The notes beneath the pieces were generated by a model. The model was not told where the DNA came from. It searched no databases and saw only the letters and a list, made by a program, of their open reading frames with translations. From a virus, in the IMG/VR virus record IMGVR_UViG_3300035490_000050, positions 72,455 through 136,454 of that record: a stretch of DNA of 64,000 nt; one strand, written 5' to 3'. The translations under genes and the position numbers were made by a program. The first letter of the stretch is position 1; each line of letters starts with the position of its first letter. Positions 9,810 to 29,525 of this stretch are shown here, piece after piece.

Positions 9810-9811
9810 CG

Positions 9812-17038: not shown

Positions 17039-17080
17039 CGCTTGACATCCATTTGATTCCGTGGGAGTATTGAAACTGAC

Positions 17081-17164
17081 ATGCGATTCCTATTATCCAG
17101 TTCGCGCTATTGCCTCTCATCGTTGCTGAGAGCAGGCTCGCCATATCTGGATAAAGGGATATAA
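17081..17164 (+). CDS. Leader peptide of tRNA array 1 (MRFLLSSSRYCLSSLLRAGSPYLDKGI)
   Basis: 27 aa between TTGACA (17042) and terminator; Leu/Ser/Tyr/Cys codons match downstream tRNAs. Confidence 0.8.
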   Translation: MRFLLSSSRYCLSSLLRAGSPYLDKGI

Positions 17165-17188
17165 GATTTCAGAAATCCAGAGTTTGAC

Positions 17189-17220
17189 GAGCCGCTCAGA
17201 AATGGGCGGCTTTTGTTTTG
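17189..17220 (+). terminator. Attenuator terminator before tRNA array 1
   Basis: GAGCCGCTC-agaaat-GGGCGGCTT then T-tract; 5' arm can pair instead with 17130-17140. Confidence 0.8.
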
Positions 17221-17221
17221 T

Positions 17222-17306
17222 GCGAGATTGGCGAAATTGGGAGCCGCGTCCGATTTAAGATCGGATTCCTTTGGGAGTATGGGTTCAAGTCCCTTATCTC
17301 GCACCA
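17222..17306 (+). tRNA. tRNA-Leu(TAA)
   Basis: Cloverleaf, loop TT-TAA-GA, V-arm, CCA. Confidence 0.92.
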
Positions 17307-17307
17307 T

Positions 17308-17382
17308 GTACCGGAAGCCAATCGGTTAGGCGGCGGATTGCAGACCCGCTCTTGGCGAGTTCGATTCTCGCCCGGTACTCCA
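17308..17382 (+). tRNA. tRNA-Cys(GCA)
   Basis: Loop TT-GCA-GA, U73, CCA. Confidence 0.92.
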
Positions 17383-17393
17383 AGTTTAGTAAG

Positions 17394-17476
17394 GCCCGGA
17401 TGGTGGAATTGGCAGACACACCAGCTTGAGGGGTTGGCGCGAAAGCATACGAGTTCAAGTCTCGTTTCGGGCACCA
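17394..17476 (+). tRNA. tRNA-Leu(GAG)
   Basis: Loop TT-GAG-GG, V-arm, CCA. Confidence 0.95.
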
Positions 17477-17477
17477 T

Positions 17478-17560
17478 GGGGTTGTGGCGGAATTGGCAGA
17501 CGCACCCGGCTCAGGACCGGACGCTTTGGCATAAGAGTTCGACTCTCTTCAGCCCCACCA
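17478..17560 (+). tRNA. tRNA-Leu(CAG)
   Basis: Loop CT-CAG-GA, V-arm, CCA. Confidence 0.95.
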
Positions 17561-17567
17561 TAAGTTT

Positions 17568-17652
17568 GTCGATGTGGCGAAACTGGAAACCGCGATAGGC
17601 TCAAACCCTATTGTCTTATGACTTGCCGGTTCGATCCCGGCCATCGACACCA
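17568..17652 (+). tRNA. tRNA-Leu(CAA)
   Basis: Loop CT-CAA-AC, V-arm, CCA. Confidence 0.93.
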
Positions 17653-17660
17653 AGTTTTAC

Positions 17661-17750
17661 GGAGACGTGGCACAATGGTACTGCACAGCATTGCTAACGC
17701 TGCGATACCCCATAAAGGTATTGGGAGTTCAAGTCTCCCCGTCTCCGCCA
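17661..17750 (+). tRNA. tRNA-Ser(GCT)
   Basis: Loop TT-GCT-AA, long V-arm, GCCA. Confidence 0.93.
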
Positions 17751-17759
17751 TGTTTTAAC

Positions 17760-17850
17760 GGAAGGATGAGCGGAATTGGTATCGCACTCGCTTGGAAAGC
17801 GAGCTTACGTCGAAAGGCGTATGCAGGTTCGAGTCCTGTTCCTTCCGCCA
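17760..17850 (+). tRNA. tRNA-Ser(GGA)
   Basis: Loop TT-GGA-AA, long V-arm, GCCA. Confidence 0.95.
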
Positions 17851-17851
17851 C

Positions 17852-17941
17852 GGTAGAGTTGGGCATGGCTGGCAAGCCCACCGCTCTCGAAAAGCGACGT
17901 ACCGCAAGGTACTGGCAGATCGTTCCTGCCCTCTACCGCCA
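17852..17941 (+). tRNA. tRNA-Ser(CGA)
   Basis: Loop CT-CGA-AA, V-arm, atypical T-loop ATCGTTC, GCCA. Confidence 0.88.
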
Positions 17942-17946
17942 AGTTT

Positions 17947-18036
17947 GGATACGTTAGGCATGTGCCAAGCCTACCCCGTTTGAAGCGGGACGCTCCTGAA
18001 AGGGACTTGGGGGTTGAACTCCCTCCGTATCCGCCA
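17947..18036 (+). tRNA. tRNA-Ser(TGA)
   Basis: Loop TT-TGA-AG, V-arm, GCCA. Confidence 0.85.
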
Positions 18037-18041
18037 GTTGT

Positions 18042-18132
18042 GCGCGTGTGGCTCAGTGGCGACGGCGGCAGTCTGTAGAACTGCTACCCTTTGCGGTGAA
18101 CATCGGTGGTTCGACTCCATCCACGCGCACCA
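18042..18132 (+). tRNA. tRNA-Tyr(GTA)
   Basis: Loop CT-GTA-GA, V-arm, ACCA. Confidence 0.93.
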
Positions 18133-18134
18133 CT

Positions 18135-18287: not shown

Positions 18288-18395
18288 TGATTCCACCTCA
18301 TAAACAGATTAGCACAATAGGAATGTGTGGTACAATTCAGGTATTCCGTCGTTCCGGCCCGACGTTAAGCAACCGGAAAATCTGAAAGGAAAACC

Positions 18396-18857
18396 ATGAG
18401 CAAGATAAAAGGTGTAGACACGTCCGTTTCATCCACCCCAAAATTCTCACAGAACAAGCCTTCAGGCGATTTCACCCACAAAGACCTCAAGCCGTGCGGA
18501 GAAGGCGGTTGTCTCCCACTAGAACAGCCTGTAGGATTCGATGAGGTTGATATTCCTGAAGTGACCTCTCCTATCCCAACCAACTTTTCTACGGTCGTCC
18601 AGATCGTCAACGGCGTAGTAACGCCAACGCTGCAAGTACTGCTCTACGATGTACTAAGCGTGATCGACGCCTCAATCCCAAACAAGGATCAGAATCGGGC
18701 GGTCAAGAAGTTGATTCACGATGGCTTTGACAAGGCGTATCTGGACATCATCCGAGAAGCCTACCCTGATTCCAACTTTGCAATTGGACCAGGACACGCC
18801 TTAACGCCTCTAGCCGACAAGAGTATGGCAATTCAGGCGGCAATCAGCAAGGTGTAA
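18396..18857 (+). CDS. Hypothetical protein
   Basis: AAGGA RBS; TG-TACAAT -10 upstream. Confidence 0.65.
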   Translation: MSKIKGVDTSVSSTPKFSQNKPSGDFTHKDLKPCGEGGCLPLEQPVGFDEVDIPEVTSPIPTNFSTVVQIVNGVVTPTLQVLLYDVLSVIDASIPNKDQNRAVKKLIHDGFDKAYLDIIREAYPDSNFAIGPGHALTPLADKSMAIQAAISKV

Positions 18858-18874
18858 AAAGCGCAGAATTATCC

Positions 18875-18903
18875 TTGACAACTCAGGAAAACGGTAGTAC
18901 CTT
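18875..18903 (+). promoter_or_regulatory. sigma70-type promoter directly before initiator-like tRNA
   Basis: TTGACA-17-TACCTT. Confidence 0.7.
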
Positions 18904-18909
18904 GGGAAA

Positions 18910-18984
18910 TGCGGGTTGGTAGCGCAGTGTCATACGTCAGGCTCATAACCTGAAAATCTGGTGCAAGTCCAGTACCCGCAACCA
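18910..18984 (+). tRNA. tRNA-Met(CAT), initiator-like
   Basis: TCAGG-CTCATAA-CCTGA arm, (T)GCGGG..CCCGCA-ACCA acceptor. Confidence 0.85.
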
Positions 18985-19192
18985 ATCTGGAGGATGTCAT
19001 GGGAAATGGCATAATTCCGCATTAGCGGCTAGAAACCGCTAATCAGTAGAGCGAGAATCCGCTGCGGGAGGTAGTATATGCAGCAGCAGAAAAGGTTGGG
19101 GGAGATGGAGAAATCCCTCCCCCAGTCTCACAAGTAAAACGAGGCGTCGACACAAACCCACGCCTATCGCCTACAAATGAAAGTGGTGTGTT

Positions 19193-19876
19193 TTGAAAAT
19201 CATCGGCGGTCATGATTATTATGATGTAGCACTGTCGATGGGCATTGATCCACGGATTGTTCTCTTGCGCGGAAAGAGTAAGAGCATACCAGTAAAGGCT
19301 GCTGGCGGGAGTTTGCTTGATCGGTACTTGGAACTCAAGCCACAGGTTACGTACAACACCTACGGCATAGGAATTGAGAATGTTGCCGTGGCATTTTGTG
19401 GGAAGGTTTATCGTGGCGCTGTAGGATTGAAGTCGCTGGAGAAGCCAGAAGGACTCTGGTCAGCAGATAAGGCAAGAGCATTCGTCGCGCAGGAAAAGAA
19501 TAGAAAGATTGACGTGGACTCACGGTGGTATGATCGCAGAAACAGGATGACCATGGAGGAATATTTCACTCCTTTTGATGCTCCTGATGCTTTGCGGAAC
19601 TACATGATCGCCAACAAGATTTCGATTCTGGTTGAAGAGCCGCCAAAGTACCGTGGCGAGGAAAGCTATTTTCAGGTCAATCCTTTCACGCTGAAGCAAC
19701 TAGGATTCGCAAAGGCTCTTGACCCATACACGGCTTTTCAGGAACTTTCGATGTGGATCGGTGGAGTTCTTGGGGGAACGAGTCCAGAGATCGTGACGAT
19801 CAAGGATGACAAGGTTTTGATTGAGAATCACGGGTTTGACAACCGATTCTCATTTCGCGGTCCTCGGATCGCATAG
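19193..19876 (+). CDS. Conserved phage hypothetical protein
   Basis: MKII...DYYD start, DPYTAFQEL, HGFD..SFR end. Confidence 0.7.
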   Translation: MKIIGGHDYYDVALSMGIDPRIVLLRGKSKSIPVKAAGGSLLDRYLELKPQVTYNTYGIGIENVAVAFCGKVYRGAVGLKSLEKPEGLWSADKARAFVAQEKNRKIDVDSRWYDRRNRMTMEEYFTPFDAPDALRNYMIANKISILVEEPPKYRGEESYFQVNPFTLKQLGFAKALDPYTAFQELSMWIGGVLGGTSPEIVTIKDDKVLIENHGFDNRFSFRGPRIA

Positions 19877-19883
19877 GATTTAC

Positions 19884-19959
19884 GCAACCGTAGCATAGCG
19901 GCTAATGTACTTGATTGTCGATCAAGGGTACGCCAGTTCGAATCTGGTCGGTTGCGCCA
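19884..19959 (+). tRNA. tRNA-Asp(GTC)
   Basis: Loop TT-GTC-GA, GCCA. Confidence 0.92.
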
Positions 19960-19974
19960 TAATCTGAGGACGCC

Positions 19975-20481
19975 ATGAGAGATCGCGCAAAGACAATAGC
20001 ATCTCTCAGACGGCTTATAGAGCGTCCTGGTACGCCGCAGGAAGGCGAAACAGCAAGACGCCTATTAGAAATGATGGGCGGGAAGGATTGGGTTCCGCGT
20101 CCTTTCGATGCAAGCATGTATCCTTGCGGAACTGAGGTTTTCTACTGCTACTGGACATACGATAACGAACATGGAGTGGTTTGCAAGCAGCCGCCAAAGA
20201 TAGAAAGAGGCCAATGGTGGATGCGAATCAAATTCGATAAGCTGAAGCAGCCGCGTTGGGTAGCAGTAACGAGCGAACTTGGATGCCATTTAGGTTTTGA
20301 GCCGTTCAAGGGAAACGACAAGGAAGTTCTCTACCATCGGGATATAGAATGGGAAGAGACGTATCGGAAGATGATTGAAGAATTCAGGGCGCTAGGAATT
20401 GACGTAAGCCGACTTGAGCACGAAGAGGTACAAGATGCACGCGATACCGGGTTGGATGTGCGGAGTGGACTTCTCCTGTGA
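19975..20481 (+). CDS. Hypothetical protein
   Basis: GAGG RBS; N-terminal RPGTPQEGETA motif. Confidence 0.65.
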   Translation: MRDRAKTIASLRRLIERPGTPQEGETARRLLEMMGGKDWVPRPFDASMYPCGTEVFYCYWTYDNEHGVVCKQPPKIERGQWWMRIKFDKLKQPRWVAVTSELGCHLGFEPFKGNDKEVLYHRDIEWEETYRKMIEEFRALGIDVSRLEHEEVQDARDTGLDVRSGLLL

Positions 20482-20729
20482 ATTAGGGGAAGCGAACGGC
20501 GGGAATACGATCTATCCGTCAGAGGAAAATCTCCGCGCCAACAGGAAATGCGTAAATTCCTCAGCGCCAGAGGATAAGATGTGCTACCCTGTTGAAGTCG
20601 TCACGATGTCGAAAGAGGACTTTCTTGAACTGGTAGAGAAGGCTGGCATTGATCCTGCGGCGATTCGGTCAAGCAATTGGGGACCAGCGGTTTGGACGAA
20701 AGAACAGGGATTGATTCAGTAGAGTTTTT

Positions 20730-20807
20730 GAGATGGCAGAGTGCGTTGGTTTGCTCCACGGCTTTTCACACCGTGCCACGCGGGTTCGATTCCCGTCCAT
20801 CTCGCCA
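20730..20807 (+). tRNA. tRNA-Glu(TTC)
   Basis: Loop TT-TTC-AC, GCCA. Confidence 0.88.
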
Positions 20808-20813
20808 AGTTTT

Positions 20814-20891
20814 GGGGTCACCGTCTAAATGGATTTGGATACCTGATTCTCACTCAGGAGATTGCGAGTTCGATCCTCGCTGACCCTACCA
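20814..20891 (+). tRNA. tRNA-Glu(CTC)
   Basis: Loop TT-CTC-AC, ACCA. Confidence 0.92.
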
Positions 20892-20969
20892 CAATTCAAG
20901 ACTCGCGACCTGATCTGAGTCAACGGGCTGGCACGGTGACCAGTGCATCAACCGAAAAGGAGAATAACG

Positions 20970-21344
20970 ATGCGTACCCGTTGCAAGTTCAGAGTCGTTG
21001 GTATTGAGAGTGTTGAACACGCGATCTTCAAGAAGGTATACAAGGCCGATGTGAGCGCCGAAGAATATGAAGCGATCACATCTCAAGAGTGGACCGAATA
21101 TCCTCCCAATCCAGACAGGCGTCTCGGTGGTGGTCCTGAGCCAAAGTTGTACAAGCAGATATTTCTAGCGAACGCTCAGAATATCCGATTGGCTGCTCAG
21201 TACGACCCTTCCATTCCCGAAGATCAGCGGTTCATGGAAGCCACACCCTCTGGGGAAATCAAGATGTATATTTCCAATCCCGCAGTGATAAACGGCTTCA
21301 AGATCGGAACGAACTACTACGTTGATCTGACGCCCTGCGATTAA
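20970..21344 (+). CDS. Conserved phage hypothetical protein
   Basis: AGGAG RBS; RCKFRV...F.EATPSGEI.M.I.NP motif. Confidence 0.7.
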   Translation: MRTRCKFRVVGIESVEHAIFKKVYKADVSAEEYEAITSQEWTEYPPNPDRRLGGGPEPKLYKQIFLANAQNIRLAAQYDPSIPEDQRFMEATPSGEIKMYISNPAVINGFKIGTNYYVDLTPCD

Positions 21345-21365
21345 CATTGTCTGCCGTACCAGCAC

Positions 21366-21405
21366 AAAAAGAGAAGCCCACCGATGTCTTGGTGGGCCTT
21401 TCTTT
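21366..21405. terminator. Bidirectional intrinsic terminator
   Basis: A-tract, GCCCACCGA/TTGGTGGGC stem, T-tract between convergent genes. Confidence 0.75.
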
Positions 21406-21432
21406 GCACTCCCCTCGTAAGGTGATACCAGT

Positions 21433-22182
21433 TTACTTCTTTGGACTTCCCATGTCAACAGGAGCCATCCGACGCGACATTCCTGCCGCTCTCATTGCCC
21501 GCACGGGAACGCTCTTGTAGAAGTCGTTCGTCGTTCGTCCAACGCTTGCGGAGAACGCCATCGTAGCGTGCGCAGTGTTGGCGTAGGCTGCTCTTACATT
21601 GCTTTGGTCGAAGACAACCGAATTGGAGAGATTGATGCCCATTGAATCTCCAGCCGTGAACGCACTGAGATCAGCGCCGAGGAAGACGAAGGTCCAGTTT
21701 CCTTCCTTCTCTTTATTCTCGATCAGTTCCTTGATCTTCGCAAGATTGAATTCTCGTGACGAATTTTCCTGCCCGTCCGTCAAGATGACGGTGAGAATCT
21801 TTGGCATCATCCCAAGTGACGGAACGCCTGCAAATGATGCTTCGACCTTGGAAACAGTGGACCCGATAGCGTCGAGAAGCGCGGTGCCGCCGCATGGAAC
21901 GTAACTCTGCTTGGTGAGTTCCGGCACCTCAGAGAGAGCGATGGATACGTGACGGTTTTCAAACCGCGTATCGAACAATGTAAGGCTGAAAGCATACGTC
22001 GATTTCTTGTCTTTTTTCAACTCACTGATATACGTGTTGAAACCGCCGATGGTGTCGTCCAAACAGGTAGCCATGGAACCGGACTTGTCGAGAACAAAGT
22101 TGATGAGAACCTTACCGTTTTTTGCGGCGGCTGGATTTGACTTCTTTGCAATCTTCTTTGGTGCGGATTTCTTTGCTGGCAT
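21433..22182 (-). CDS. VWA-domain protein
   Basis: MIDAS LDKSGSM, GGTALLDAIG, ILTDGQENSSREF. Confidence 0.9.
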   Translation of the reverse strand: MPAKKSAPKKIAKKSNPAAAKNGKVLINFVLDKSGSMATCLDDTIGGFNTYISELKKDKKSTYAFSLTLFDTRFENRHVSIALSEVPELTKQSYVPCGGTALLDAIGSTVSKVEASFAGVPSLGMMPKILTVILTDGQENSSREFNLAKIKELIENKEKEGNWTFVFLGADLSAFTAGDSMGINLSNSVVFDQSNVRAAYANTAHATMAFSASVGRTTNDFYKSVPVRAMRAAGMSRRMAPVDMGSPKK

Positions 22183-22417
22183 TCGTATTCTCCTGTGCTG
22201 CTAACGCGGTTGAAAGTGTTGATTCAGGTACGCGGTAGCACCGCTCCGCGCCAAGGAAGCTGTAGATTGCAGGTCCAGGTTCACGCCGCGAGTTGTAAAC
22301 GTCATTCAGATATTGCGGCGAGACACCCATCGTCTGCGCAAATTCCTTTTGCGTCCTCTCCCCTTGAATCTTCTGCATGATTTCCAAGAGTCCTGCGATA
22401 TTCGTCACCCTGTACAT
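22112..22417 (-). CDS. XRE-family HTH protein
   Basis: TQKEFAQTMGVSPQYLNDV..RREPG; leaderless promoter TTGCAT-17-TATTAT. Confidence 0.75.
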   Translation of the reverse strand: MYRVTNIAGLLEIMQKIQGERTQKEFAQTMGVSPQYLNDVYNSRREPGPAIYSFLGAERCYRVPESTLSTALAAQENTNASKEIRTKEDCKEVKSSRRKKR

Positions 22418-22479
22418 AAATACTATAATACGCGGATTTGTGGTATAATGCAAGTAGAAAGTTTTTGAAAAGGAGTTTC

Positions 22480-23070
22480 ATGGGAGCGAAGCGTTTACCT
22501 GCCACCGTAAAAAATCTGACGCCTATGCGTGCTGCATGGCTTGCTGCTCTGATTGATGGAGAAGGAACAATCAGTATCCACCTAACGCCTAACGGATCAA
22601 AACGTGCGTGGATCGCGGTTTACAACACAAACACCGATATTCTTGACAAATGTGCCTATGTGTGTGGCGCTGGCGTTGTTCGGAAGAAAATGCCGGGAAA
22701 GAAGAATGATGGATTCAAACGATTGCAAATGTGGGAATGGGAACTTGATAGAGCAAGAGATGCTCACCATCTTCTATGCCAACTTTATCCGTACCTGATA
22801 ATCAAGCAACACAAAGCAATAGACCTCATTGTTCATTGGAGGGACGAAAGAACCAACGATATTTCAGAAAACGACCACGACGACGTAAAGGAAATGAAGA
22901 TGGCGCAGCGTCATTTAAGCAACAGGGAATTTTCGGTCGCACTTGGTTTCGGATACGGATGCGTCAGCGGAATATATTCTCGGAATGATCCGCTTTCATC
23001 GAGAGTCAGAATCGCGTTGGATAAATACAAGACAGAAATGCCAAACAGAAAAGAATTATCTTGGCGATGA
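22480..23070 (+). CDS. LAGLIDADG endonuclease-like protein with C-terminal HTH
   Basis: AWLAALIDGEGTI, LYPYLIIK. Confidence 0.85.
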   Translation: MGAKRLPATVKNLTPMRAAWLAALIDGEGTISIHLTPNGSKRAWIAVYNTNTDILDKCAYVCGAGVVRKKMPGKKNDGFKRLQMWEWELDRARDAHHLLCQLYPYLIIKQHKAIDLIVHWRDERTNDISENDHDDVKEMKMAQRHLSNREFSVALGFGYGCVSGIYSRNDPLSSRVRIALDKYKTEMPNRKELSWR

Positions 23071-23079
23071 AAATAGTCC

Positions 23080-23108
23080 TTGACAGCGATTCCCATCTGC
23101 GCTAAGGT
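23080..23108 (+). promoter_or_regulatory. sigma70-type promoter of tRNA array 2
   Basis: TTGACA-17-TAAGGT; ATG of leader 7 nt later (leaderless). Confidence 0.8.
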
Positions 23109-23115
23109 AGAAAAC

Positions 23116-23196
23116 ATGAAGACGCGATTCCAAAACGCCAATCCAACAGCGACGGCAACGCCGCAGGGTCATGGTGCGGAATCAGGGTCTCAGTAG
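23116..23196 (+). CDS. Leader peptide of tRNA array 2 (MKTRFQNANPTATATPQGHGAESGSQ)
   Basis: Codons 3-21 all specify amino acids served by array 2 tRNAs. Confidence 0.82.
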   Translation: MKTRFQNANPTATATPQGHGAESGSQ

Positions 23197-23229
23197 GATT
23201 TTTACTCGCATAGAGCGAGTAAAACTGAA

Positions 23230-23270
23230 GAGGCCCGGTCCAAAGAAGCGGATCGGGCCTCGGTGCTTTT
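23230..23270 (+). terminator. Attenuator terminator before tRNA array 2
   Basis: 12-bp stem GAGGCCCGGTCC/GGATCGGGCCTC, offset T-tract; 5' arm can pair instead with 23178-23194. Confidence 0.7.
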
Positions 23271-23278
23271 AGGGATGT

Positions 23279-23354
23279 TCCACGGTCGTCTAACTGTGAA
23301 GACACCGAACTGTTAATTCGGGTAATGCAGGTCAGAATCCTGCCTGTGGAGCCA
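23279..23354 (+). tRNA. tRNA-Asn(GTT)
   Basis: Loop CT-GTT-AA, atypical T-loop TCAGAAT, GCCA. Confidence 0.88.
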
Positions 23355-23363
23355 GTTTGAAGT

Positions 23364-23439
23364 TGGGGAGAAGTTCAACGGGTGGAACAATCGGCTCTGA
23401 CCCGATAGGCAGAAAGTTCGAGACTTTCCTCCCCAGCCA
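23364..23439 (+). tRNA. tRNA-Gln(CTG)
   Basis: U1-A72, loop CT-CTG-AC, GCCA. Confidence 0.92.
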
Positions 23440-23446
23440 AGATCGT

Positions 23447-23520
23447 TGCCCGTTCGTTCAACGGTAGGACACCGCCCTTTGGAGGCGAGGATGGCGGTTC
23501 AAGTCCGTCACGGGTAGCCA
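23447..23520 (+). tRNA. tRNA-Gln(TTG)
   Basis: U1-A72, loop CT-TTG-GA, GCCA. Confidence 0.94.
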
Positions 23521-23527
23521 AATTAAC

Positions 23528-23601
23528 GCGGGCATAGCTCAGTGGTAGAGTGCTGGCTTGCCGAGCCGGAGACGCGGATTCAAGTTCCGCTGCCCGCTCC
23601 A
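23528..23601 (+). tRNA. tRNA-Gly(GCC)
   Basis: Loop TT-GCC-GA, TCCA. Confidence 0.95.
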
Positions 23602-23682
23602 TATTGAAAGAGGAAGACGATGAAGGTTGATTTGGACGCCAGCATGGAATCGGTATACGGAAGGCTGGCAGGAAGGTTTCAG

Positions 23683-23757
23683 GCTGCTGTGGCAGAGAGC
23701 TTATGCGCTGACCCCGTAAGTCAGAATACAAGGGTTGAAATCCCTTCGGCAGCTCCA
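23683..23757 (+). tRNA. tRNA-Thr(CGT), C33 variant
   Basis: Loop CC-CGT-AA, TCCA. Confidence 0.85.
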
Positions 23758-23782
23758 GAATGTGACGAAAGCGAGTAGGACG

Positions 23783-24328
23783 ATGAACTTACTGAAAAAA
23801 CCCGTACTTTTGCTCAACGCATCGTATGAGGCAATTCGCATAATTTCAGCAAAGAGATCGCTGACTCTCTTAACGAAAGGAAAAGTTGCGGTCGAACTTG
23901 CAACGGACAGGGAAGTTTATCCTGGCGTGTTTTTGCCTAGCGTTATCCGTCTTCTTGTCTACAAGCATGTTCCCGTCAGAATGCAGCAGATGACGCGCAA
24001 AAACCTGTACTTGAGAGACGGTTACAAATGTGGCTATTGCGGTGAGCAGTTTTCTGGAAGCGAACTGACTTTGGATCACATTATCCCAAAGGCGCAAGGT
24101 GGAAAGAACACGTATGAGAACTTGATTACCTGCTGCCGCAAGGATAACCATCGGAAAGCGGATCGGACGCCTCAACAGGCAGGAATGGTTTTGTTGAGAC
24201 GGCCTATCCCGGCAACGGTTCACACTGGTAGGCACATCATGCGTTCGCTAGGATTAGAAACGCAGGGATGGGCAAAATATCTTTGGGCTGATGCTGATGG
24301 TGAGCAGAGGTTAGTGGCAAGAGGATGA
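23783..24328 (+). CDS. HNH endonuclease (McrA-like) inside tRNA array
   Basis: VLLLNASYE, PSVIRL, RDGYKCGYCG, TLDHIIPKAQGG, NL..CC..NHRK..RTP. Confidence 0.92.
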   Translation: MNLLKKPVLLLNASYEAIRIISAKRSLTLLTKGKVAVELATDREVYPGVFLPSVIRLLVYKHVPVRMQQMTRKNLYLRDGYKCGYCGEQFSGSELTLDHIIPKAQGGKNTYENLITCCRKDNHRKADRTPQQAGMVLLRRPIPATVHTGRHIMRSLGLETQGWAKYLWADADGEQRLVARG

Positions 24329-24332
24329 GTTT

Positions 24333-24407
24333 GCACTCTAAACATTGCTGGTGATGCCTTCCCCTGTAAGGAAGTTTAACGGAGTTCGAGTCTCCGAGAG
24401 TGCTCCA
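24333..24407 (+). tRNA. tRNA-Thr(TGT), C33 variant
   Basis: Loop CC-TGT-AA, TCCA. Confidence 0.87.
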
Positions 24408-24410
24408 AGT

Positions 24411-24487
24411 GTGGCCGTAGTTCAAGAGGAAGAACACATGCCTGTGGCGCATGTATGATGGGCTTTCGAGCAGCCCCGGCCACCCCA
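24411..24487 (+). tRNA. tRNA-His(GTG)
   Basis: Loop CT-GTG-GC, C73, CCA. Confidence 0.88.
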
Positions 24488-24492
24488 TTTGT

Positions 24493-24567
24493 GGGGGTGT
24501 AGTGACAATGAGAACACGTCCCGTTTGCACCGGGAAAATCGGAGTTTGAATCTCCGCATCTCCACCA
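24493..24567 (+). tRNA. tRNA-Ala(TGC)
   Basis: G3.U70, loop TT-TGC-AC, ACCA. Confidence 0.9.
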
Positions 24568-24577
24568 CGTAGTTTTT

Positions 24578-24653
24578 GTCTACTGAGCTAGTGCGGTCAT
24601 AGCAATCGCCTGAAGAGCGATGGAATCCGGTTCGACTCCGGGAGTAGGCACCA
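24578..24653 (+). tRNA. tRNA-Phe(GAA)
   Basis: Loop CT-GAA-GA, ACCA. Confidence 0.93.
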
Positions 24654-24654
24654 T

Positions 24655-24728
24655 CAGGGAATAGTGTAGTGCTAACATCCGTGTTTTGGGCACACGTGTC
24701 CGGGGTTGGAATCCCCGTTCCCTGACCA
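24655..24728 (+). tRNA. tRNA-Pro(TGG)
   Basis: C1-G72, loop TT-TGG-GC, ACCA. Confidence 0.9.
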
Positions 24729-24733
24729 TTTTT

Positions 24734-24808
24734 CAACCCGTCGTTCAACGGAAAGGACGATGCGCTACGAACGCATAAATGGGGATTCGACTTCCTCCGG
24801 GTTGACCA
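24734..24808 (+). tRNA. tRNA-Arg(ACG)
   Basis: Loop CT-ACG-AA, ACCA. Confidence 0.92.
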
Positions 24809-24844
24809 TAGTTCGCAAGCACGAAATAAAGTTGAAAATAATGC

Positions 24845-24873
24845 TTGCAAATGTCTGGAATGTGTAGTAGGCT
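24845..24873 (+). promoter_or_regulatory. sigma70-type promoter of Y-like RNA / HNH / TROVE operon
   Basis: TTGCAA-17-TAGGCT. Confidence 0.7.
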
Positions 24874-24902
24874 TGATTTCGTTGGGTTTTGAAACACAGG
24901 TT

Positions 24903-25027
24903 TGCGTCTACTGTTGAGCGTACATGATGACTAGCTCACTCGGTAGAGCGATTCCCTTCAAAGGAATAGGTCACTGGTTCGATTCCAGTGTCATCTACTT
25001 CGGTAGATCGCTCAACGTCTTGACGCA
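24903..25027 (+). ncRNA. Y-RNA-like RNA 1: outer stem with TACT/GTCTT loop enclosing a cloverleaf (anticodon TCA) and a UUCG hairpin
   Basis: TGCGTC/GACGCA and GTTGAGCG/CGCTCAAC stems; cloverleaf 24926-24995. Confidence 0.75.
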
Positions 25028-25033
25028 GTAAAT

Positions 25034-25151
25034 TTGGGTGTAATTTTCGGCTTACATGAGCCTGTTTGGTCAGGCACTTGCCGTTGGAGCAAACTAACCC
25101 GGTTCGATTCCGGGATGTTACCCGAAAGGGTTGCCGAGAGACTTCACCCAA
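25034..25151 (+). ncRNA. Y-RNA-like RNA 2: same architecture as RNA 1
   Basis: TTGGGTG/CACCCAA, TAAT/GACTT loop, TTTCGGC/GCCGAGA, D, anticodon and T arms, GAAA hairpin. Confidence 0.72.
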
Positions 25152-25159
25152 TAAGTTGT

Positions 25160-25277
25160 GGGGGACCGCTTAGTAAACCGAGGACGACTTCTCGGAAACG
25201 AGTACGGTTCTAGGATACATGACAAGCATACAGCCGAAAGGCTGTGTATCGTGGCTAAACACCACGGTCCTCCACCA
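25160..25277 (+). ncRNA. tRNA-like RNA 3 with Ala-type acceptor (G3.U70, ACCA) and Y-like loop
   Basis: GGGGGAC/GTCCTCC-ACCA; AGGAC-GACTT-CTCG-gaaa-CGAG-TACG-GTTCT. Confidence 0.68.
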
Positions 25278-25298
25278 AAGTTTTGTAGTACAAGTTGT

Positions 25299-25419
25299 GG
25301 CGGGTTAGCAAAACGGAAAAGCTCTGCATGTCTTGACGCGCAATCGTCTATTTTGCAGGTTACATGCACATTCACTCGGAGAATGCACAATCTAGGTTCG
25401 ACTCCTAGACCCGCCACCA
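25299..25419 (+). ncRNA. tRNA-like RNA 4 with CCA end, anticodon loop replaced by Y-like loop
   Basis: GGCGGGT/ACCCGCC-ACCA, D arm, CTGCA-t-GTCTT-GACG-cgcaat-CGTC-TATT-t-TGCAG, V-arm, canonical T arm. Confidence 0.75.
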
Positions 25420-25628
25420 TAAGATTTACCGCATGGGAGTGCGGAAACGAGTTTGGCTGACACTGGTTTCGTGGATACATGTTTTTGGGGATCATATCCC
25501 CACCCCCCGCCTAAGCCCTTTGGCAACGGAGGATTTAGGCGGGGGTTCTGAGGGCCGCAAGGCTGCTTAGAAAACAATTGCCCACAACCGACTTTCAGCC
25601 ACTATTTTTGTGCCTTGGGAGAGGGAAT

Positions 25629-26189
25629 ATGGCCAGCGGTGATCGTTTCTACATGCTATCCTTGCGCCATCGCCCTGCGGTGTACGGCGATCTCGGAAAC
25701 ATCCTCAAAATCGAAGGTTTGGTGGTAGGCGGAGAAGGGGCGCATGTAATTCTTACGCTTCCCTCTTCCGATCTAAAAACTGATACCTACTGGGATGCTA
25801 ATACATTCCCAGCAATTCATCAGTTATCCCTTGAGGAGTGGACCGATTTTCTAGCGCGTACTGACGATCCAGAAATTCTAATCGGTCAAGCGAAGGCTTT
25901 CCATCGCAAATGCCGTTATGAAATTTCAGGGGCGGTACAGCAGAAGATATGGGTAGCTGATGGTCTAAAGTGCATGTACTGCGGAGTCAGGATGGGCAGG
26001 GCACAACTCACAGTGGACCATTGGGAATCGCTTGAGGCTGGTGGAAAGAACGATAGCTCAAATTTTCTCGCAGCCTGCAAGACGTGTAATAAGGCCAAAG
26101 GTTCCATGCCGCCGCGTGACTGGTGCAGCCTTCGCAAAATTGATTACGACTTCTTTGTGGAGTATCTGAGAACGAGGAAGTTGCCTTAA
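25629..26189 (+). CDS. HNH endonuclease-domain protein
   Basis: DGLKCMYCG, LTVDH, GG....NFLAACKTCNKAKG. Confidence 0.85.
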   Translation: MASGDRFYMLSLRHRPAVYGDLGNILKIEGLVVGGEGAHVILTLPSSDLKTDTYWDANTFPAIHQLSLEEWTDFLARTDDPEILIGQAKAFHRKCRYEISGAVQQKIWVADGLKCMYCGVRMGRAQLTVDHWESLEAGGKNDSSNFLAACKTCNKAKGSMPPRDWCSLRKIDYDFFVEYLRTRKLP

Positions 26190-26217
26190 CACTTTTCGCA
26201 CCGGGAGGGCGAATACT

Positions 26218-27711
26218 ATGGCAGAAACAGGGCTTACACGTCAAAGAATTTTGTCGGAATTGTCGAAGAGTCCACACGGCTCTTTGAAAGAGTATCTTCC
26301 TATCGGCAAACAGGCCGTTCAACAGGAAGGTGAATTTTATCAACACATGCTTGCCTGGGATAGGACGCATGGGCAGATTAGGGACAGCAAGGTTGCGCTT
26401 CCTGTGATCGGCTTGGCTTTTGAGAAGGATGAGGAATTACTCGACAACAGCCTTGCTCACATCGCTCTTTTGGGGCCGCGTGAACTGGCAAGAGCATATC
26501 GGTTTGGATTGGAGATTCGTCTCCCTGGCAAGATGCGTCAGTTGCGTAGGCTTGTCGAAGACTACCTACACCAAAAGGAGCAAGACAAAGGTTGGGATCA
26601 TCTGGCAATCCAGCACAGGGGTACGCTGAAGGAACTCTACTCTCTGGCGCACGCAAAGCCTGAAAAGGAGAGAACCAACGTCGTTCTCTATGGCAGGAAC
26701 TTCGACAAGACAAAGGCACCGCTGCCCAAGGGATCAGTCTTTGAGGTAGTAGCAAACCTCAAGAACATGAGTCCTACGGAGGCTGCTGGTTCGATCATGA
26801 AGTACCGGATTCCTTTCCTTATCGCCATGGGCGCGTTAGGCGCAAAGGCGAAGGAGCCGGATTTGGTACTGGCTTTGATCGGAGCCATGTCTGCAACGGA
26901 GTTGACCACGAACGTCAAGATGCTGGAGAAGTTGGGCCTGAAGACGAATCCTGCGCTGCGTGGGGCATTCGACAACGCATTGGCTAAGGCGGCTACGTCG
27001 AAGAAGAATACGCTCAAGACGACTCAGGCGGTCGAGGCCGTACAGGACGAGGGATTGAAGGAGAAGCTCCGTGGACTACAGGCAAAGCAGATAGCGGCTG
27101 CGGGTGGTCCAGACGGCGACTGGGTAATTTTAGTTGACAAATCTGGATCGATGCACCATGCAATCGAAACTGGTTGCCATGTTGCAGGGGCGCTCACACA
27201 GTTCGTCAAAGGAAAGGTTGGGTTGATTTTCTTCGATACCTCTCCTATGGCGGTGGACGTAACCGGCTTGTCGCTGGACCAAATCAAGAAGGCGACACGA
27301 CACTTCACAGCGAACGGTGGAACATCCATCGGCTGCGGTCTGAATCGGATGCTGGTAGAGAAAGTTGCTGTGGATGGAATTGTGATCGTGTCGGACGGTG
27401 GAGACAACACTGCTCCACTATTCCATGACGTATATCCGAAGTACGCGAAATTCTGCGATAAGGATGTGCCGGTGTATTTCTACCAACTTAGCGGAGAATC
27501 GGACAAGCTGACGCCGAACATGCAACGGGCAGGAATCGAGATGACAACATTCGATTTGCGCGGTTCAAAGCTGGACTACTACAGCATTCCGAACACGGTC
27601 AAGACGCTTCGCAGTAACCAGTACAGTTTGGTTGAGGAAATACTCTCGACCCCGCTTTTAACCCTCAACACCGTGCTCAAGGGAGCGCAGAAAGGACTGG
27701 TGACAGTCTAA
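26218..27711 (+). CDS. TROVE/Ro60-like protein with C-terminal VWA domain
   Basis: Helical N-terminal domain (IRDSK.ALP, LKELY..AH.KP, MSATEL..N...LEK.G), MIDAS VDKSGSM, GGTSIG, IVIVSDGGDN; adjacent Y-like RNAs. Confidence 0.78.
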   Translation: MAETGLTRQRILSELSKSPHGSLKEYLPIGKQAVQQEGEFYQHMLAWDRTHGQIRDSKVALPVIGLAFEKDEELLDNSLAHIALLGPRELARAYRFGLEIRLPGKMRQLRRLVEDYLHQKEQDKGWDHLAIQHRGTLKELYSLAHAKPEKERTNVVLYGRNFDKTKAPLPKGSVFEVVANLKNMSPTEAAGSIMKYRIPFLIAMGALGAKAKEPDLVLALIGAMSATELTTNVKMLEKLGLKTNPALRGAFDNALAKAATSKKNTLKTTQAVEAVQDEGLKEKLRGLQAKQIAAAGGPDGDWVILVDKSGSMHHAIETGCHVAGALTQFVKGKVGLIFFDTSPMAVDVTGLSLDQIKKATRHFTANGGTSIGCGLNRMLVEKVAVDGIVIVSDGGDNTAPLFHDVYPKYAKFCDKDVPVYFYQLSGESDKLTPNMQRAGIEMTTFDLRGSKLDYYSIPNTVKTLRSNQYSLVEEILSTPLLTLNTVLKGAQKGLVTV

Positions 27712-28010
27712 TGAATATCAACGCACTGAAGAACTTCAACGCCGACCGTATGGACTTGGATGACATGGTAGGCTTGCTTGCGGACTGCAAGGCACTCCGC
27801 GCTGAGTACGAGGCGCTCCAGATCGAAGAGCCTGAGTATATCGACACAACCATCAAGGCAATTCGCCGGGAGATCACATCCCGCAACGCTGACAAGATCG
27901 CGGCTCGTAAGCGTGAGCTTGCCGCACGGATCGACAGCCTCAAGACTCCTGCACAGAAGAAGGCAGAACTTGAGAAGGAGCTTGCCAAGTTGGAAGCCGT
28001 TCCTGTCTAA
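27711..28010 (+). CDS. Small coiled-coil protein coupled to TROVE gene
   Basis: TAATG overlap; charged helical sequence. Confidence 0.7.
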   Translation: MNINALKNFNADRMDLDDMVGLLADCKALRAEYEALQIEEPEYIDTTIKAIRREITSRNADKIAARKRELAARIDSLKTPAQKKAELEKELAKLEAVPV

Positions 28011-28031
28011 CCCATCAACCATTTGAGCGAA

Positions 28032-28062
28032 GGGGCACAGGATAACGTGCCCCACTTTTTTC
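28032..28062 (+). terminator. Intrinsic terminator of TROVE operon
   Basis: GGGGCAC-aggataac-GTGCCCC then T-tract. Confidence 0.8.
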
Positions 28063-28064
28063 TC

Positions 28065-28093
28065 TTGCATTCCTAATCGACCTGGGGTACAGT
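28065..28093 (+). promoter_or_regulatory. sigma70-type promoter of tRNA array 3
   Basis: TTGCAT-17-TACAGT; GTG 7 nt later. Confidence 0.78.
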
Positions 28094-28100
28094 TTCTATA

Positions 28101-28184
28101 GTGATGAAGAGGATCATTGGTATCACCTCTTTTCTGTTCGCCCACCCCCTTCGGCTCTCCCAAGTGTCCGGGGATGTAGGCTAA
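28101..28184 (+). CDS. Leader ORF A of tRNA array 3 (MMKRIIGITSFLFAHPLRLSQVSGDVG)
   Basis: Starts at predicted TSS; stop overlaps RBS of leader B. Confidence 0.6.
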   Translation: MMKRIIGITSFLFAHPLRLSQVSGDVG

Positions 28185-28191
28185 GGAAAAC

Positions 28192-28278
28192 ATGCAGACG
28201 ACCACCAGACGCGGGACCATAACCAGAATGACCAAGCGGGTCATTTGGGGAATAGTGCGCGAGGGTTGGGACGATTAA
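28192..28278 (+). CDS. Leader peptide B of tRNA array 3 (MQTTTRRGTITRMTKRVIWGIVREGWDD)
   Basis: AAGGA RBS; codons 3-23 only T,R,G,I,M,K,V,W, the amino acids of array 3. Confidence 0.8.
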   Translation: MQTTTRRGTITRMTKRVIWGIVREGWDD

Positions 28279-28302
28279 ATCTGCAAAAAGATTGAATCTA
28301 CC

Positions 28303-28328
28303 AGCCCGGTCTTAGGATCGGGCTTTTT
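28303..28328 (+). terminator. Attenuator terminator before tRNA array 3
   Basis: AGCCCGGTC-ttag-GATCGGGCT-TTTT; CCAGCCC can pair instead with GGGTTGG 28263-28269. Confidence 0.8.
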
Positions 28329-28357
28329 GATGTTTGAAAACTGAAACGAATAATCAT

Positions 28358-28432
28358 GCCTCGTTAAGCTAGTTGGGAAACTGTCGGTCTCCAAAGCCGA
28401 ACTCAGGGGTTCAAATCCTCTACGGGGTGCCA
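28358..28432 (+). tRNA. tRNA-Trp(CCA)
   Basis: Loop CT-CCA-AA, GCCA. Confidence 0.9.
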
Positions 28433-28437
28433 TTTTT

Positions 28438-28515
28438 GCCAGTGTAGTTCAGTCGGCTTAGAACGCTGCATTCATAACGCAGAGGTCAACAGTTCAATCC
28501 TGTTCACTGGCACCA
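28438..28515 (+). tRNA. tRNA(CAT), elongator Met or Ile2
   Basis: Loop TT-CAT-AA, ACCA; identity not resolvable by eye. Confidence 0.88.
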
Positions 28516-28519
28516 AGTT

Positions 28520-28617
28520 GGAGCGGCGGCGCATAATTCACTGGCGGTATCGGACAGCTAAGACTACCGAGACGTGCAGAACTCACCGAAAGGTTAGCCG
28601 TTGCAGTGGGCCGCTCC
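28520..28617 (+). ncRNA. Unassigned structured RNA inside array 3
   Basis: GGAGCGGC/GCCGCTCC closing stem, CGGTA/TACCG and ACC-gaaa-GGT hairpins. Confidence 0.5.
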
Positions 28618-28677
28618 GAAAGTTCACGGCTGTAAAGCCTATACCGATGGCGCAAGGCCATCCTGCCGTGATTAAGT

Positions 28678-28700
28678 TTCGAGTCCTAGTGGGGGCACCA
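28678..28700 (+). pseudogene. Orphan tRNA 3' fragment
   Basis: TTCGAGTCCTAGTGGGGGCACCA with no matching 5' half. Confidence 0.55.
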
Positions 28701-28704
28701 TAGT

Positions 28705-28791
28705 GGAACCGTGGCCTAGTCTGGTTTTGGGCACCCGGCTCTTACCCGGCGCAGAAATGCAACGCAGGTTCAAATCCTGCCGGTTCCACCA
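28705..28791 (+). tRNA. tRNA-Lys(CTT) with long variable arm
   Basis: Loop CT-CTT-AC; V-arm GCA-gaaa-TGC; ACCA. Confidence 0.88.
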
Positions 28792-28801
28792 ACACTTTTA
28801 C

Positions 28802-28887
28802 GGAGTCGTACTCGAATTGGATGCAGAGACCTGACTTTTAATCAGCGGGGTAACCCAATGGGGGTTCGAGTCCCCCCGGCTCCACCA
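28802..28887 (+). tRNA. tRNA-Lys(TTT) with long variable arm
   Basis: Loop CT-TTT-AA; V-arm GGG-gtaa-CCC; ACCA. Confidence 0.88.
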
Positions 28888-28892
28888 GTTAC

Positions 28893-28969
28893 GCGGCGGT
28901 ATTCCCCTCGTCTTCTAAACGAGTAAGGATAATTGGAATATGTGAGTTCGATCCTCACCCGCTGCTCCA
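28893..28969 (+). tRNA. Non-canonical tRNA-Arg(TCT), D-arm relocated
   Basis: Acceptor, anticodon (CT-TCT-AA) and T arms intact; 7-nt linker instead of D arm; 18-nt variable region. Confidence 0.75.
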
Positions 28970-28973
28970 TTTT

Positions 28974-29050
28974 GGTCCCGTACCGGCCATGTTTCCTAAA
29001 CATGTAACCGTAAGTGGATGATGTCAGTTCGAGCCTGACCGGGACTTCCA
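28974..29050 (+). tRNA. Non-canonical tRNA-Arg(CCT), D-arm relocated
   Basis: Same geometry; loop TT-CCT-AA. Confidence 0.75.
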
Positions 29051-29054
29051 TTTT

Positions 29055-29131
29055 GCTGCCGTACCAGCCGCGCCTCCGAAGCGCGATACTGTAACTGAAT
29101 GATGCAGGTTTGAGTCCTGTCGGCAGCGCCA
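29055..29131 (+). tRNA. Non-canonical tRNA-Arg(CCG), D-arm relocated
   Basis: Same geometry; loop CT-CCG-AA. Confidence 0.75.
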
Positions 29132-29136
29132 GTTTT

Positions 29137-29214
29137 GGGAACGTGGGCCAGCGGCGACGCCACCTGTCCTACAAACAGGTATTACCGGAAGTTCGAGTCT
29201 TCCCGTTCCCACCA
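29137..29214 (+). tRNA. tRNA-Val(TAC), C33 variant
   Basis: Loop CC-TAC-AA, ACCA. Confidence 0.88.
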
Positions 29215-29290
29215 AGTTCGGAGTCCTACGGTTAGAAGCCGTGGGAGGTTACAACGAGCAGATGCAACACCTGCTACTCTGGGATGATTT

Positions 29291-29364
29291 GCCGATGTAG
29301 CTCAGTGATAGAGTGCCGCACTGGTATTGCGGTGACGAGGGTTTGATTCCCTCCTTCGGCCCCA
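29291..29364 (+). tRNA. tRNA-Thr(GGT)
   Basis: Loop CT-GGT-AT, CCA. Confidence 0.88.
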
Positions 29365-29365
29365 T

Positions 29366-29443
29366 GGCGGTCTAGCTCACATTGAGAAGAGCGCAGTCCT
29401 GATAAGACTGAGGCACCCAGTTCAATTCTGGGGACCGCCACCA
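29366..29443 (+). tRNA. tRNA-Ile(GAT)
   Basis: Loop CT-GAT-AA, ACCA. Confidence 0.92.
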
Positions 29444-29449
29444 TAGTTT

Positions 29450-29525
29450 GCGGGAGTAACTCAGCGGCTAGAGTGTCAGCCTTCCAAGCTGTTCGTCGAG
29501 GGTTCGAGTCCCTTCTCCCGCTCCA
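29450..29525 (+). tRNA. tRNA-Gly(TCC)
   Basis: Loop CT-TCC-AA, TCCA. Confidence 0.95.

Follow-up and report, generated by a model that had tools for sequence, protein, structure and literature searches.

A leaderless, codon-matched leader and candidate attenuator ahead of an eleven-gene tRNA array in an uncultured phage

The stretch of DNA analysed here, called the window throughout, comprises 64,000 nucleotides and corresponds to bases 72455-136454 of the IMG/VR virus record IMGVR_UViG_3300035490_000050 (136,454 bases, rated complete), from an uncultured peat/soil phage. All of the record's 32 Rfam tRNA matches lie inside window positions 17222-29522, and ARAGORN identified 31 tRNAs in the same segment, organized as three arrays plus single genes. 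The second array consists of eleven tRNA genes, split into a proximal and a distal group by a co-oriented gene for an HNH endonuclease, and is preceded at 23080-23275 by a promoter-like site, a short open reading frame (ORF) and two hairpins (Table 1). This unit likely ends at the promoter-like site at 24845. We think it probable that the segment 23080-23275 is a ribosome-mediated (leader-peptide) attenuator gating the 11-gene tRNA operon, and that it is one of three in the genome. The interpretation is well supported by sequence, statistics and comparison, except for termination at this copy.

The short ORF, hereafter leader 2, begins with an ATG only 7 nt downstream of the -10 hexamer TAAGGT. 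Relatives of the locus were retrieved via the gene for a VWA-domain protein at 26218-27711, whose product is 61-97% identical at the 9 viral and 37 metagenome loci obtained in this way; one more locus (L012) was added by a motif scan, and W denotes this window. Identical copies were dropped (L003 and L038, equal to L010; L007, L008 and L013-L015, equal to L009; L011, equal to L005; L019, equal to L018), as was L020, whose leader-3 ORF is identical to that of L018, and leader 2 of L033 was left out because the contig ends 73 nt before tRNA-Asn. All 9 relatives have a -10 hexamer of the form TAnnnT at a distance of 17 nt from TTGACA, and their start codons come 6-10 nt behind it. We considered TAAGGT as a Shine-Dalgarno sequence and rejected this reading, since the relatives have TACCGT, TAACGT, TACATT, TATCGT or TATAGT at the same 17-nt distance from TTGACA. 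The fixed distance in all nine argues that TAAGGT is a -10 element and not a ribosome-binding site, and with a start codon so close behind the hexamer the mRNA of leader 2 would be leaderless or nearly so, in line with the original prediction. Another leaderless-type start in this phage is found at a promoter at 455 with an ATG at 490. Leader 2 thus has one hallmark of a leader-peptide attenuator, a short 5' ORF with a usable start directly upstream of the regulated genes, and is presumably translated.

A second hallmark is a match between the regulatory codons of the ORF and what the regulated genes produce. Under simple wobble rules of our own choosing (G34 reads C/U, U34 reads A/G, C34 reads G, and A34, as inosine, reads U/C/A), the 11 tRNAs of array 2 read 19 of the 25 internal codons of leader 2, and each of the 11 anticodons is covered. 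For the tRNAs of the other two arrays, only 1/25 and 2/25 of the codons are cognate. In codons 3-21 of the ORF, GCC is the lone non-cognate codon and would need extended reading by U34. This run is exactly the codon string quoted in the original prediction, and the claim made there that the ORF covers all 11 downstream anticodons holds under simple wobble, as does its specificity for array 2 at the isoacceptor level. Among 127,852 six-frame 25-codon windows across the 64 kb, at least 19 cognate codons in combination with 11/11 coverage and no stop codon occurred in only 5 overlapping windows, all of which are situated over leader 2. The maximum in the 9,431 windows within ORFs of at least 200 aa was 17 cognate codons, and the cognate background in these ORFs is 30%. 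When the window test was run with array 1 it singled out leader 1 (17081-17164), and with array 3 it returned leader 3 plus three further windows at two places.

Array 2 and array 3 each supply tRNAs for Thr, Gly and Arg, with different anticodons, which are CGT/TGT for Thr, GCC for Gly and ACG for Arg in array 2, and GGT for Thr, TCC for Gly and TCT/CCT/CCG for Arg in array 3. In the window, leader 2 contains the Thr codons ACG (three times) and ACA (once), whereas leader 3 contains ACC (five times) and ACG (once), a difference that had already been noticed in the original prediction. Across 9 leader-2 and 15 leader-3 sequences, the counts of Thr codons ACR/ACY are 29/11 in leader 2, 9/55 in leader 3 and 317/255 in the phage genes (Fisher p 2.8e-9, leader 2 against leader 3, as for the p-values below), those of Gly codons GGY/GGR are 16/9, 2/31 and 327/428 (p 4.8e-6), and those of Arg codons CGH/(AGR+CGG) are 11/3, 7/39 and 304/304 (p 2.2e-5), these p-values overstating independence because the sequences are related. 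For the window alone, with Thr, Gly and Arg pooled, the counts are 7/1 in leader 2 versus 4/10 in leader 3 (p 0.024). Leaders 2 and 3 thus use opposite synonymous codons for all three amino acids, as the anticodons of the arrays predict, and this synonymous-codon behavior is what distinguishes a tRNA sensor from an amino-acid sensor.

The two sister units are built in the same manner. Leader 1 has 13/26 codons cognate to its own array, as compared to 6 and 2-3 for the other arrays, and leader 3 has 16/27 codons cognate to its own array, as compared to 0 and 5. The top three terminator-like matches in the segment 16000-31000 are the hairpins located 3' of the three leaders. The codon match and the hairpin at all three leaders indicate three units with identical layout, each fitted to its own array. 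Among assessable distinct sites in the relatives, a leader ORF is present between promoter and hairpin in 9/9 cases for leader 2, 4/4 for leader 1 and 15/16 for leader 3, the single miss being L024, which has a hairpin and a U-run before tRNA-Trp and no recognizable leader-3 ORF. The leader-2 ORFs have 20-27 codons, and 19-23 of their 20-26 internal residues are drawn from the array's 9 amino acids; the residue order is shuffled across relatives while the composition is kept, as exemplified by the peptides MKFNRANSTRTFTPAQPQGNTLSCGPA and MMTFTTHTATQAPTQPAGNRGSAG. Variants of the arrays in Arg, Pro and Ala tRNAs are compatible with the leaders and non-discriminating, and some genes escape ARAGORN. 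Internal controls are provided by the Met-Asp-Glu-Glu array of L009 and by the Met tRNA of L010, both of which are located directly 3' of a promoter and have no leader.

Table 1. Features of the second tRNA unit and of its two sister units, in window coordinates.
Feature	Position	Strand	Description
Promoter-like site, unit 2	23080..23108	+	TTGACA 23080-23085, 17-nt spacer, TAAGGT 23103-23108
Leader ORF 2	23116..23196	+	26 codons and TAG (23194-23196); encodes MKTRFQNANPTATATPQGHGAESGSQ, then stop
Region 1	23121..23131	+	Codons 2-6; pairs with 23178-23189 in the full-length minimum-energy fold
19-codon run	23122..23178	+	Codons 3-21, all for array-2 amino acids; 18 cognate by simple wobble
Region 2	23178..23194	+	Last ORF codons, with GGGTCTC; pairs with region 1 or with the 5' arm of the putative terminator hairpin
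Perfect 10-bp hairpin	23200..23224	+	Arms 23200-23209/23215-23224 (TTTTACTCGC / GCGAGTAAAA); enclosed by the antiterminator helix
12-bp G+C-rich hairpin	23230..23261	+	Arms 23230-23241/23250-23261; dG -24.8 kcal/mol; putative terminator stem
TTTT run	23267..23270	+	5 nt past the 12-bp stem, after GGTGC; weak element of the putative terminator
Proximal tRNAs, array 2	23279..23757	+	Asn-GTT, Gln-CTG, Gln-TTG, Gly-GCC, Thr-CGT (ARAGORN)
HNH endonuclease ORF	23735..24328	+	Splits array 2, co-oriented; Pfam HNH, E 1.4e-14
Distal tRNAs, array 2	24333..24808	+	Thr-TGT, His-GTG, Ala-TGC, Phe-GAA, Pro-TGG, Arg-ACG (ARAGORN)
Promoter-like site	24845..24873	+	TTGCAA-N17-TAGGCT, ahead of tRNA with anticodon TCA
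Sister unit 1	17042..18132	+	TTGACA at 17042; array Leu x4, Cys, Ser x3, Tyr
Leader ORF 1	17081-17164	+	Encodes MRFLLSSSRYCLSSLLRAGSPYLDKGI, then stop
Leader-1 terminator	17189-17212	+	Canonical; followed by TTTTGTTTT
Sister unit 3	28065..29525	+	Promoter-like TTGCAT-N17-TACAGT at 28065-28093
Leader ORF 3	28192-28278	+	Encodes MQTTTRRGTITRMTKRVIWGIVREGWDD, then stop
Leader-3 terminator	28303-28324	+	Canonical; followed by TTTTT
Array 3 (unit 3)		+	Trp, Met, Lys x2, three atypical Arg-like tRNAs, Val, Thr-GGT, Ile, Gly-TCC

The full leader folds much better than shuffled sequences (z -4.97), into three elements, namely a helix between the two ends of the ORF (23121-23131 with about 23178-23189), the middle hairpin at 23200-23224 and the 12-bp hairpin. 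According to RNAalifold, the 12-bp hairpin is kept in the 9 leader-2 sequences with compensatory changes in 7/12 pairs. The middle hairpin (helix 3), which may act as a clamp or pause hairpin, is paired in 73.8% of the alignment cells across relatives. We also modelled the RNA as it would be before the 3' arm of the 12-bp hairpin emerges, with a ribosome footprint of -15 to +13 nt around the A site kept single-stranded. In these constrained folds, region 2 (23178-23194) pairs with 23225-23241 around the middle hairpin, with a core of GGGUCUC against GAGGCCC, which is the antiterminator that the original prediction had proposed. With the ribosome at codon 8, the antiterminator has a ddG of -9.7 kcal/mol in the window and of -9.2 to -15.8 in 9/9 leader-2 sequences, and with the ribosome at the stop codon the corresponding values are -3.1 in the window and -0.1 to -6.9 across the nine. 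Moving the ribosome to the stop codon thus weakens the antiterminator by at least 3.8 kcal/mol in 9/9 leader-2 sequences and in 25/28 of all leaders. Of the three exceptions, two go back to hairpins that were picked wrongly by the automatic procedure (leader 1 of L026, leader 3 of L017) and are still counted as failures.

The alignment of relatives points in the same direction. The antiterminator is paired in 70.9% of the alignment cells, as compared to 24-47.5% when the partners are slid by 1-3 columns, and in L010 both of its strands differ in sequence with the pairing retained. The motif GGGTCTC is present within 9 nt of the leader-2 stop codon in W, L002, L005, L009, L012 and L018, and in L026 the stop codon lies directly 5' of the variant GGGCCTC. 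In the folds, the leader thereby shows two further attributes of an attenuator, a mutually exclusive antiterminator built on the 5' arm of the putative terminator, and a stop codon placed to mask it.

In a trp-type attenuator, a ribosome at the stop codon favors the stop hairpin, whereas a lagging ribosome favors the antiterminator. One scenario for leader 2 is that the host RNA polymerase would start at the TTGACA/TAAGGT promoter and a ribosome would start on the leaderless AUG, after which codons 3-21 would sample the codons read by the operon's own tRNAs. If decoding is fast, the ribosome would be at the UAG while the polymerase makes 23230-23261, so that region 2 would be covered, the 12-bp hairpin would form and transcription would be cut down ahead of tRNA-Asn. 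Scarcity of even one sampled tRNA would make the ribosome lag, and region 2 could capture the 5' arm of the hairpin around the 23200-23224 clamp hairpin, in which case the stop hairpin would be blocked and the polymerase would read into the tRNAs. The direction of the response, that is more tRNA when decoding is slow, would thus follow the trp-type logic. Because the tRNA product would speed up decoding of the leader, the device would represent a negative-feedback supply meter that resolves isoacceptors, and with about 19 codons sampled it would add up the delay over the tRNA species of the operon. More broadly, the tRNA supply of the phage may consist of three self-regulating modules, each with a leaderless “decoding-speed meter” over its own isoacceptors that opens on shortage, a proposition that we regard as evenly balanced.

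The critical step is termination. That transcription stops at the hairpin 23230-23261 is predicted from the sequence, and the T-tract is short and offset, as the original prediction had cautioned, with a run of 4 nt beginning 5 nt from the stem. Knowledge of terminators in E. coli predicts weak intrinsic termination from such a short and offset U-run. The U-tract after the leader-2 hairpin is poor or missing in 7/9 relatives; a canonical U-run abutting the stem is found only in L010 and L030, L009 falls in between, and in L002, L012, L018 and L026 there is practically no such run. It should therefore be considered that the leader is translated and codon-matched while the hairpin is not a transcription terminator and the switch controls something else, such as polymerase pausing, factor-dependent termination, the processing of the 5' end or the stability of the precursor tRNA or, in relatives, the translation of an ORF inserted right behind the hairpin. 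The retention of the hairpin with compensatory changes despite the poor U-tract speaks for this alternative, as do L012 and L018/L019, where the hairpin directly precedes AGGAG and the inserted ORF, and a conserved segment 3' of the hairpin that reads GCGTAGGAG in some sequences and TTTAGGGA in others. We nevertheless consider it unlikely: by eye, leaders 1 and 3, which have the same layout, are followed by canonical terminators with hairpin and U-run in 4/4 and 15/15 sequences, L010 and L030 have canonical U-runs at leader 2 itself, and the 5' arm has a conserved alternative partner that a ribosome parked on the stop codon would mask, just as expected for an attenuator.

ORFs inserted between the leader-2 hairpin and tRNA-Asn were observed in L012 (2087-2530), L018 (596-768) and L030 (1770-2335). 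They start a few bases past an AGGAG behind the hairpin and are HNH-like in L012 and L030.

Leaderless starts occur frequently in this phage, and the upstream ORF might accordingly sense nothing, being a chance AUG after a promoter or serving to keep the tRNA transcript coupled or protected, for example against Rho. We find this quite improbable, since it leaves unexplained that each of the three leaders fits its own array but neither of the other two, that leaders 2 and 3 make opposite synonymous codon choices, and that the Met/Asp/Glu tRNA genes of L009 and L010 have no leader. We give hardly any credence to the idea that the ORFs encode small functional peptides, or that their composition is a by-product of constraints on RNA structure, with the codon match a coincidence: some parts of the peptides do keep their position (P-Q/A-G-N/H close to the C-terminus in leader 2, K-R-V/M-(I)-W-G in leader 3) and several conserved stretches fall in predicted helices, but elsewhere the residue order is scrambled with the composition kept among relatives, for leaders 1 and 2 no other place among ~127,850 windows gives such a match, and it occurs directly upstream of the matching array three times.

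Besides the poor U-tract, several observations weigh against the attenuator hypothesis. Under strict Watson-Crick pairing, the match of leader 2 to its array falls to 11/25 codons and 8/11 anticodons, and even with simple wobble the codons AAG, GCC, GAA, TCA, GGG and TCT have no cognate in array 2. L009 retains a Phe codon in its leader, and no Phe tRNA was called in its array. The contents of the arrays are too conserved among the relatives to offer a clean test of covariation with tRNA gain and loss. As for the structures, the footprint size and the use of equilibrium folding are modelling choices of ours, shuffled sequences equal the antiterminator in 8/100 and 5/60 cases, so that the window alone is only marginally better, and the antiterminator still forms in the truncated fold with no ribosome (ddG -6.7). 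A stalled ribosome, moreover, cannot distinguish a missing tRNA from an uncharged one. Finally, the phage is uncultured.

If the attenuator gates the whole array, a single transcript should span the HNH gene. Leader 2 carries His, Ala, Phe, Pro, Arg and ACA codons that can be read only by tRNAs located past this gene, as the original prediction had stressed when it pointed out that the match spans both sides. An independent promoter for the distal tRNAs was also looked for, and no strong promoter-like or terminator-like site was found within 23116-24808; the weak sites in this interval are a promoter-like TTGAAT-N18-TAGTTT at 24546, inside tRNA genes, and a 5-bp hairpin at 23908. Taken together, the distal-only codons and the lack of strong internal sites make co-transcription of both halves plausible. 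Three metatranscriptome runs contain 7-14% of the sampled words of 16900-24900, with contigs that match array 2 at 99-100% identity over 23458-23715, 23557-23716 and 24340-24503, and a contig of a relative (9 differences) extends from leader 1 (17092) across the terminator into the first 19 nt of tRNA-Leu. No contig in the three runs covers 22507-23307 or bridges the HNH gene. Starts, ends and strand cannot be read from these contigs and carry-over of DNA is possible, and they were counted neither for nor against.

Regulation of this kind has its closest parallels in amino-acid metabolism. The thr leader contains Thr and Ile codons and the ilv leaders contain Ile, Val and Leu codons; trpL, hisL, leuL and pheL are further examples. 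Such multivalent leader-peptide attenuators of enterobacterial amino-acid operons are the topic of two papers (PMC1183508; PMC3082878). Like these leaders, leader 2 is a short ORF with regulatory codons in which more than one kind of codon is read out, and its stop codon lies beside a segment with two alternative partners, one upstream and the other in the 5' arm of the hairpin that follows. Unlike them, it would gate tRNAs instead of biosynthetic enzymes, has codons for 11 anticodons (9 amino acids) where the known leaders carry runs for 1-3 amino acids, has synonymous codons that track the isoacceptors of the array, and is encoded by a leaderless mRNA with a weak U-tract. It also lacks an Rfam leader match. 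Leader 2 consequently falls outside the classical amino-acid operon leaders (the Rfam Trp, His, Leu, Thr and Phe families), as no family matches and the downstream genes are tRNAs. At the gathering score, Rfam gave only tRNA matches in the whole window, with no leader family and no T-box, and at E<=10 the segment 22950-23300 gave a single chance-level snoRNA match (E 3.3), again with no T-box.

Other systems share individual aspects. In E. coli, the pheM leader peptide attenuates pheST, which encodes phenylalanyl-tRNA synthetase. The likeness is that leader-peptide attenuation acts on the translation apparatus and that slow decoding raises the supply of charged tRNA; the difference is that pheM controls a synthetase for one amino acid, whereas here the tRNA genes themselves, many together, would be gated. 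A T-box riboswitch binds one uncharged tRNA directly by a specifier codon, and translation is not needed. As in the T-box, the state of specific tRNAs would decide on read-through by a choice between terminator and antiterminator, but the sensor here would be a translated ORF with multiple codons and, in the absence of a match to the Rfam model, it cannot be assigned to that class. In mycobacteria, leaderless polycysteine short ORFs are reported to be Cys-responsive attenuators (bioRxiv 10.1101/834739). They resemble leader 2 in that a leaderless first-cistron ORF acts as a codon-specific sensor, and differ from it in responding to one amino acid and controlling protein-coding operons, whereas leader 2 has multiple codon kinds and precedes tRNA genes. 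None of these closest systems is known to control tRNA genes, and full-text literature searches, with subscription journals and supplements outside their scope, yielded no description of leader-peptide attenuation of tRNA genes.

The tRNA inventory of the region has additional peculiarities. Three tRNA-like genes with the Arg anticodons TCT, CCT and CCG are located at 28883-29128, between Lys-TTT and Val-TAC. ARAGORN recognizes them only at -ps80/-ps85 and only one of them (28893-28966) passes the Rfam tRNA cut-off, with 30.2 bits; their homologs are canonical in relatives, and the genes in the window may be decaying or have an unusual structure. A tRNA-Lys(CTT)-like gene at 25299-25419 has a 46-nt insertion in the region of the anticodon loop (ARAGORN intron mode; Rfam 35.1 bits) and adjoins a second HNH gene (25578-26189). 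Rfam identified a further tRNA at 20814-20888 (46.6 bits), just 3' of Glu-TTC, that was missed by ARAGORN; in relatives, Glu-CTC adjoins Glu-TTC. A perfect TTGACA-N17-TACCTT promoter at 18875-18984 is followed directly by a Met(CAT)-like tRNA with no leader, as are the Met tRNAs of relatives, and this gene was called by ARAGORN only at -ps90 and has no Rfam match. The 190-nt stretch at 28516-28704, between tRNA-Met and tRNA-Lys, contains no tRNA call and no above-chance Rfam match.

Suppressor-type tRNAs are also present. The tRNA with the opal-reading anticodon TCA is located at 24925-24998 and has its own promoter-like site at 24845. Among the relatives examined (L003/L010, L005 and L018), CTA (amber) and TTA (ochre) tRNAs are present, and in L010 and L005 a suppressor-type tRNA of the phage itself could read the type of stop codon that ends a leader-2 ORF. 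Long ORFs look normal under table 11.

At leader 3, about 100 nt (28094-28191) separate the promoter from the leader in this phage and in L018, L022, L026 and L032, and in the window a small ORF at 28101-28184 lies upstream and ends in TAAGGA before the ATG of the leader. Leader 3 is leaderless and located directly after the promoter in L017, L025, L029, L030 and L031.

Several neighboring genes were also identified. The VWA-domain protein (497 aa), encoded between arrays 2 and 3, is conserved in all relatives. Two loci, L006 and L037, have the VWA gene (69% identity) with a single tRNA in 21 kb, so that part of the family lacks the tRNA arrays together with their leaders. A blastn search of 22400-25100 against 50,697 phage records for cultured close relatives matched single tRNAs only, and tblastn of the VWA protein gave two uncultured records at 25-32% identity. 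An RNA ligase gene at 30531-31499 on the minus strand (phrog_968, E 1.4e-29) adjoins the tRNA region, which we take to fit a phage that invests in tRNA upkeep. The ORF at 47723-48844 matches phrog_1211 (E 1.8e-60), annotated there as 2-aminooxy adenylosuccinate synthetase; we presume a resemblance to PurZ, which would hint at a 2-aminoadenine genome. The tblastn match of the ORF at 8733-9815 is a widely shared UDP-galactopyranose mutase, uninformative on taxonomy.

Bacterial tRNA genes are usually described as controlled at the promoter by growth rate, and why phages carry tRNA genes and how these are controlled is an open question. If our interpretation is correct, decoding speed would feed back directly on tRNA synthesis in a system that reads isoacceptors rather than amino acids. 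The phage could then sense and repair, operon by operon, a mismatch in codon supply or a depletion of host tRNAs, including depletion by tRNA-cleaving defences. The parts are small (~190 nt) and transferable to reporter or cell-free systems, and three orthogonal sensors from a single genome could also serve to report translation speed in a codon-specific way. The attenuator hypothesis also offers a testable explanation for the sorting of phage tRNA genes into blocks, and for the function of the short unannotated ORFs that precede tRNA arrays.

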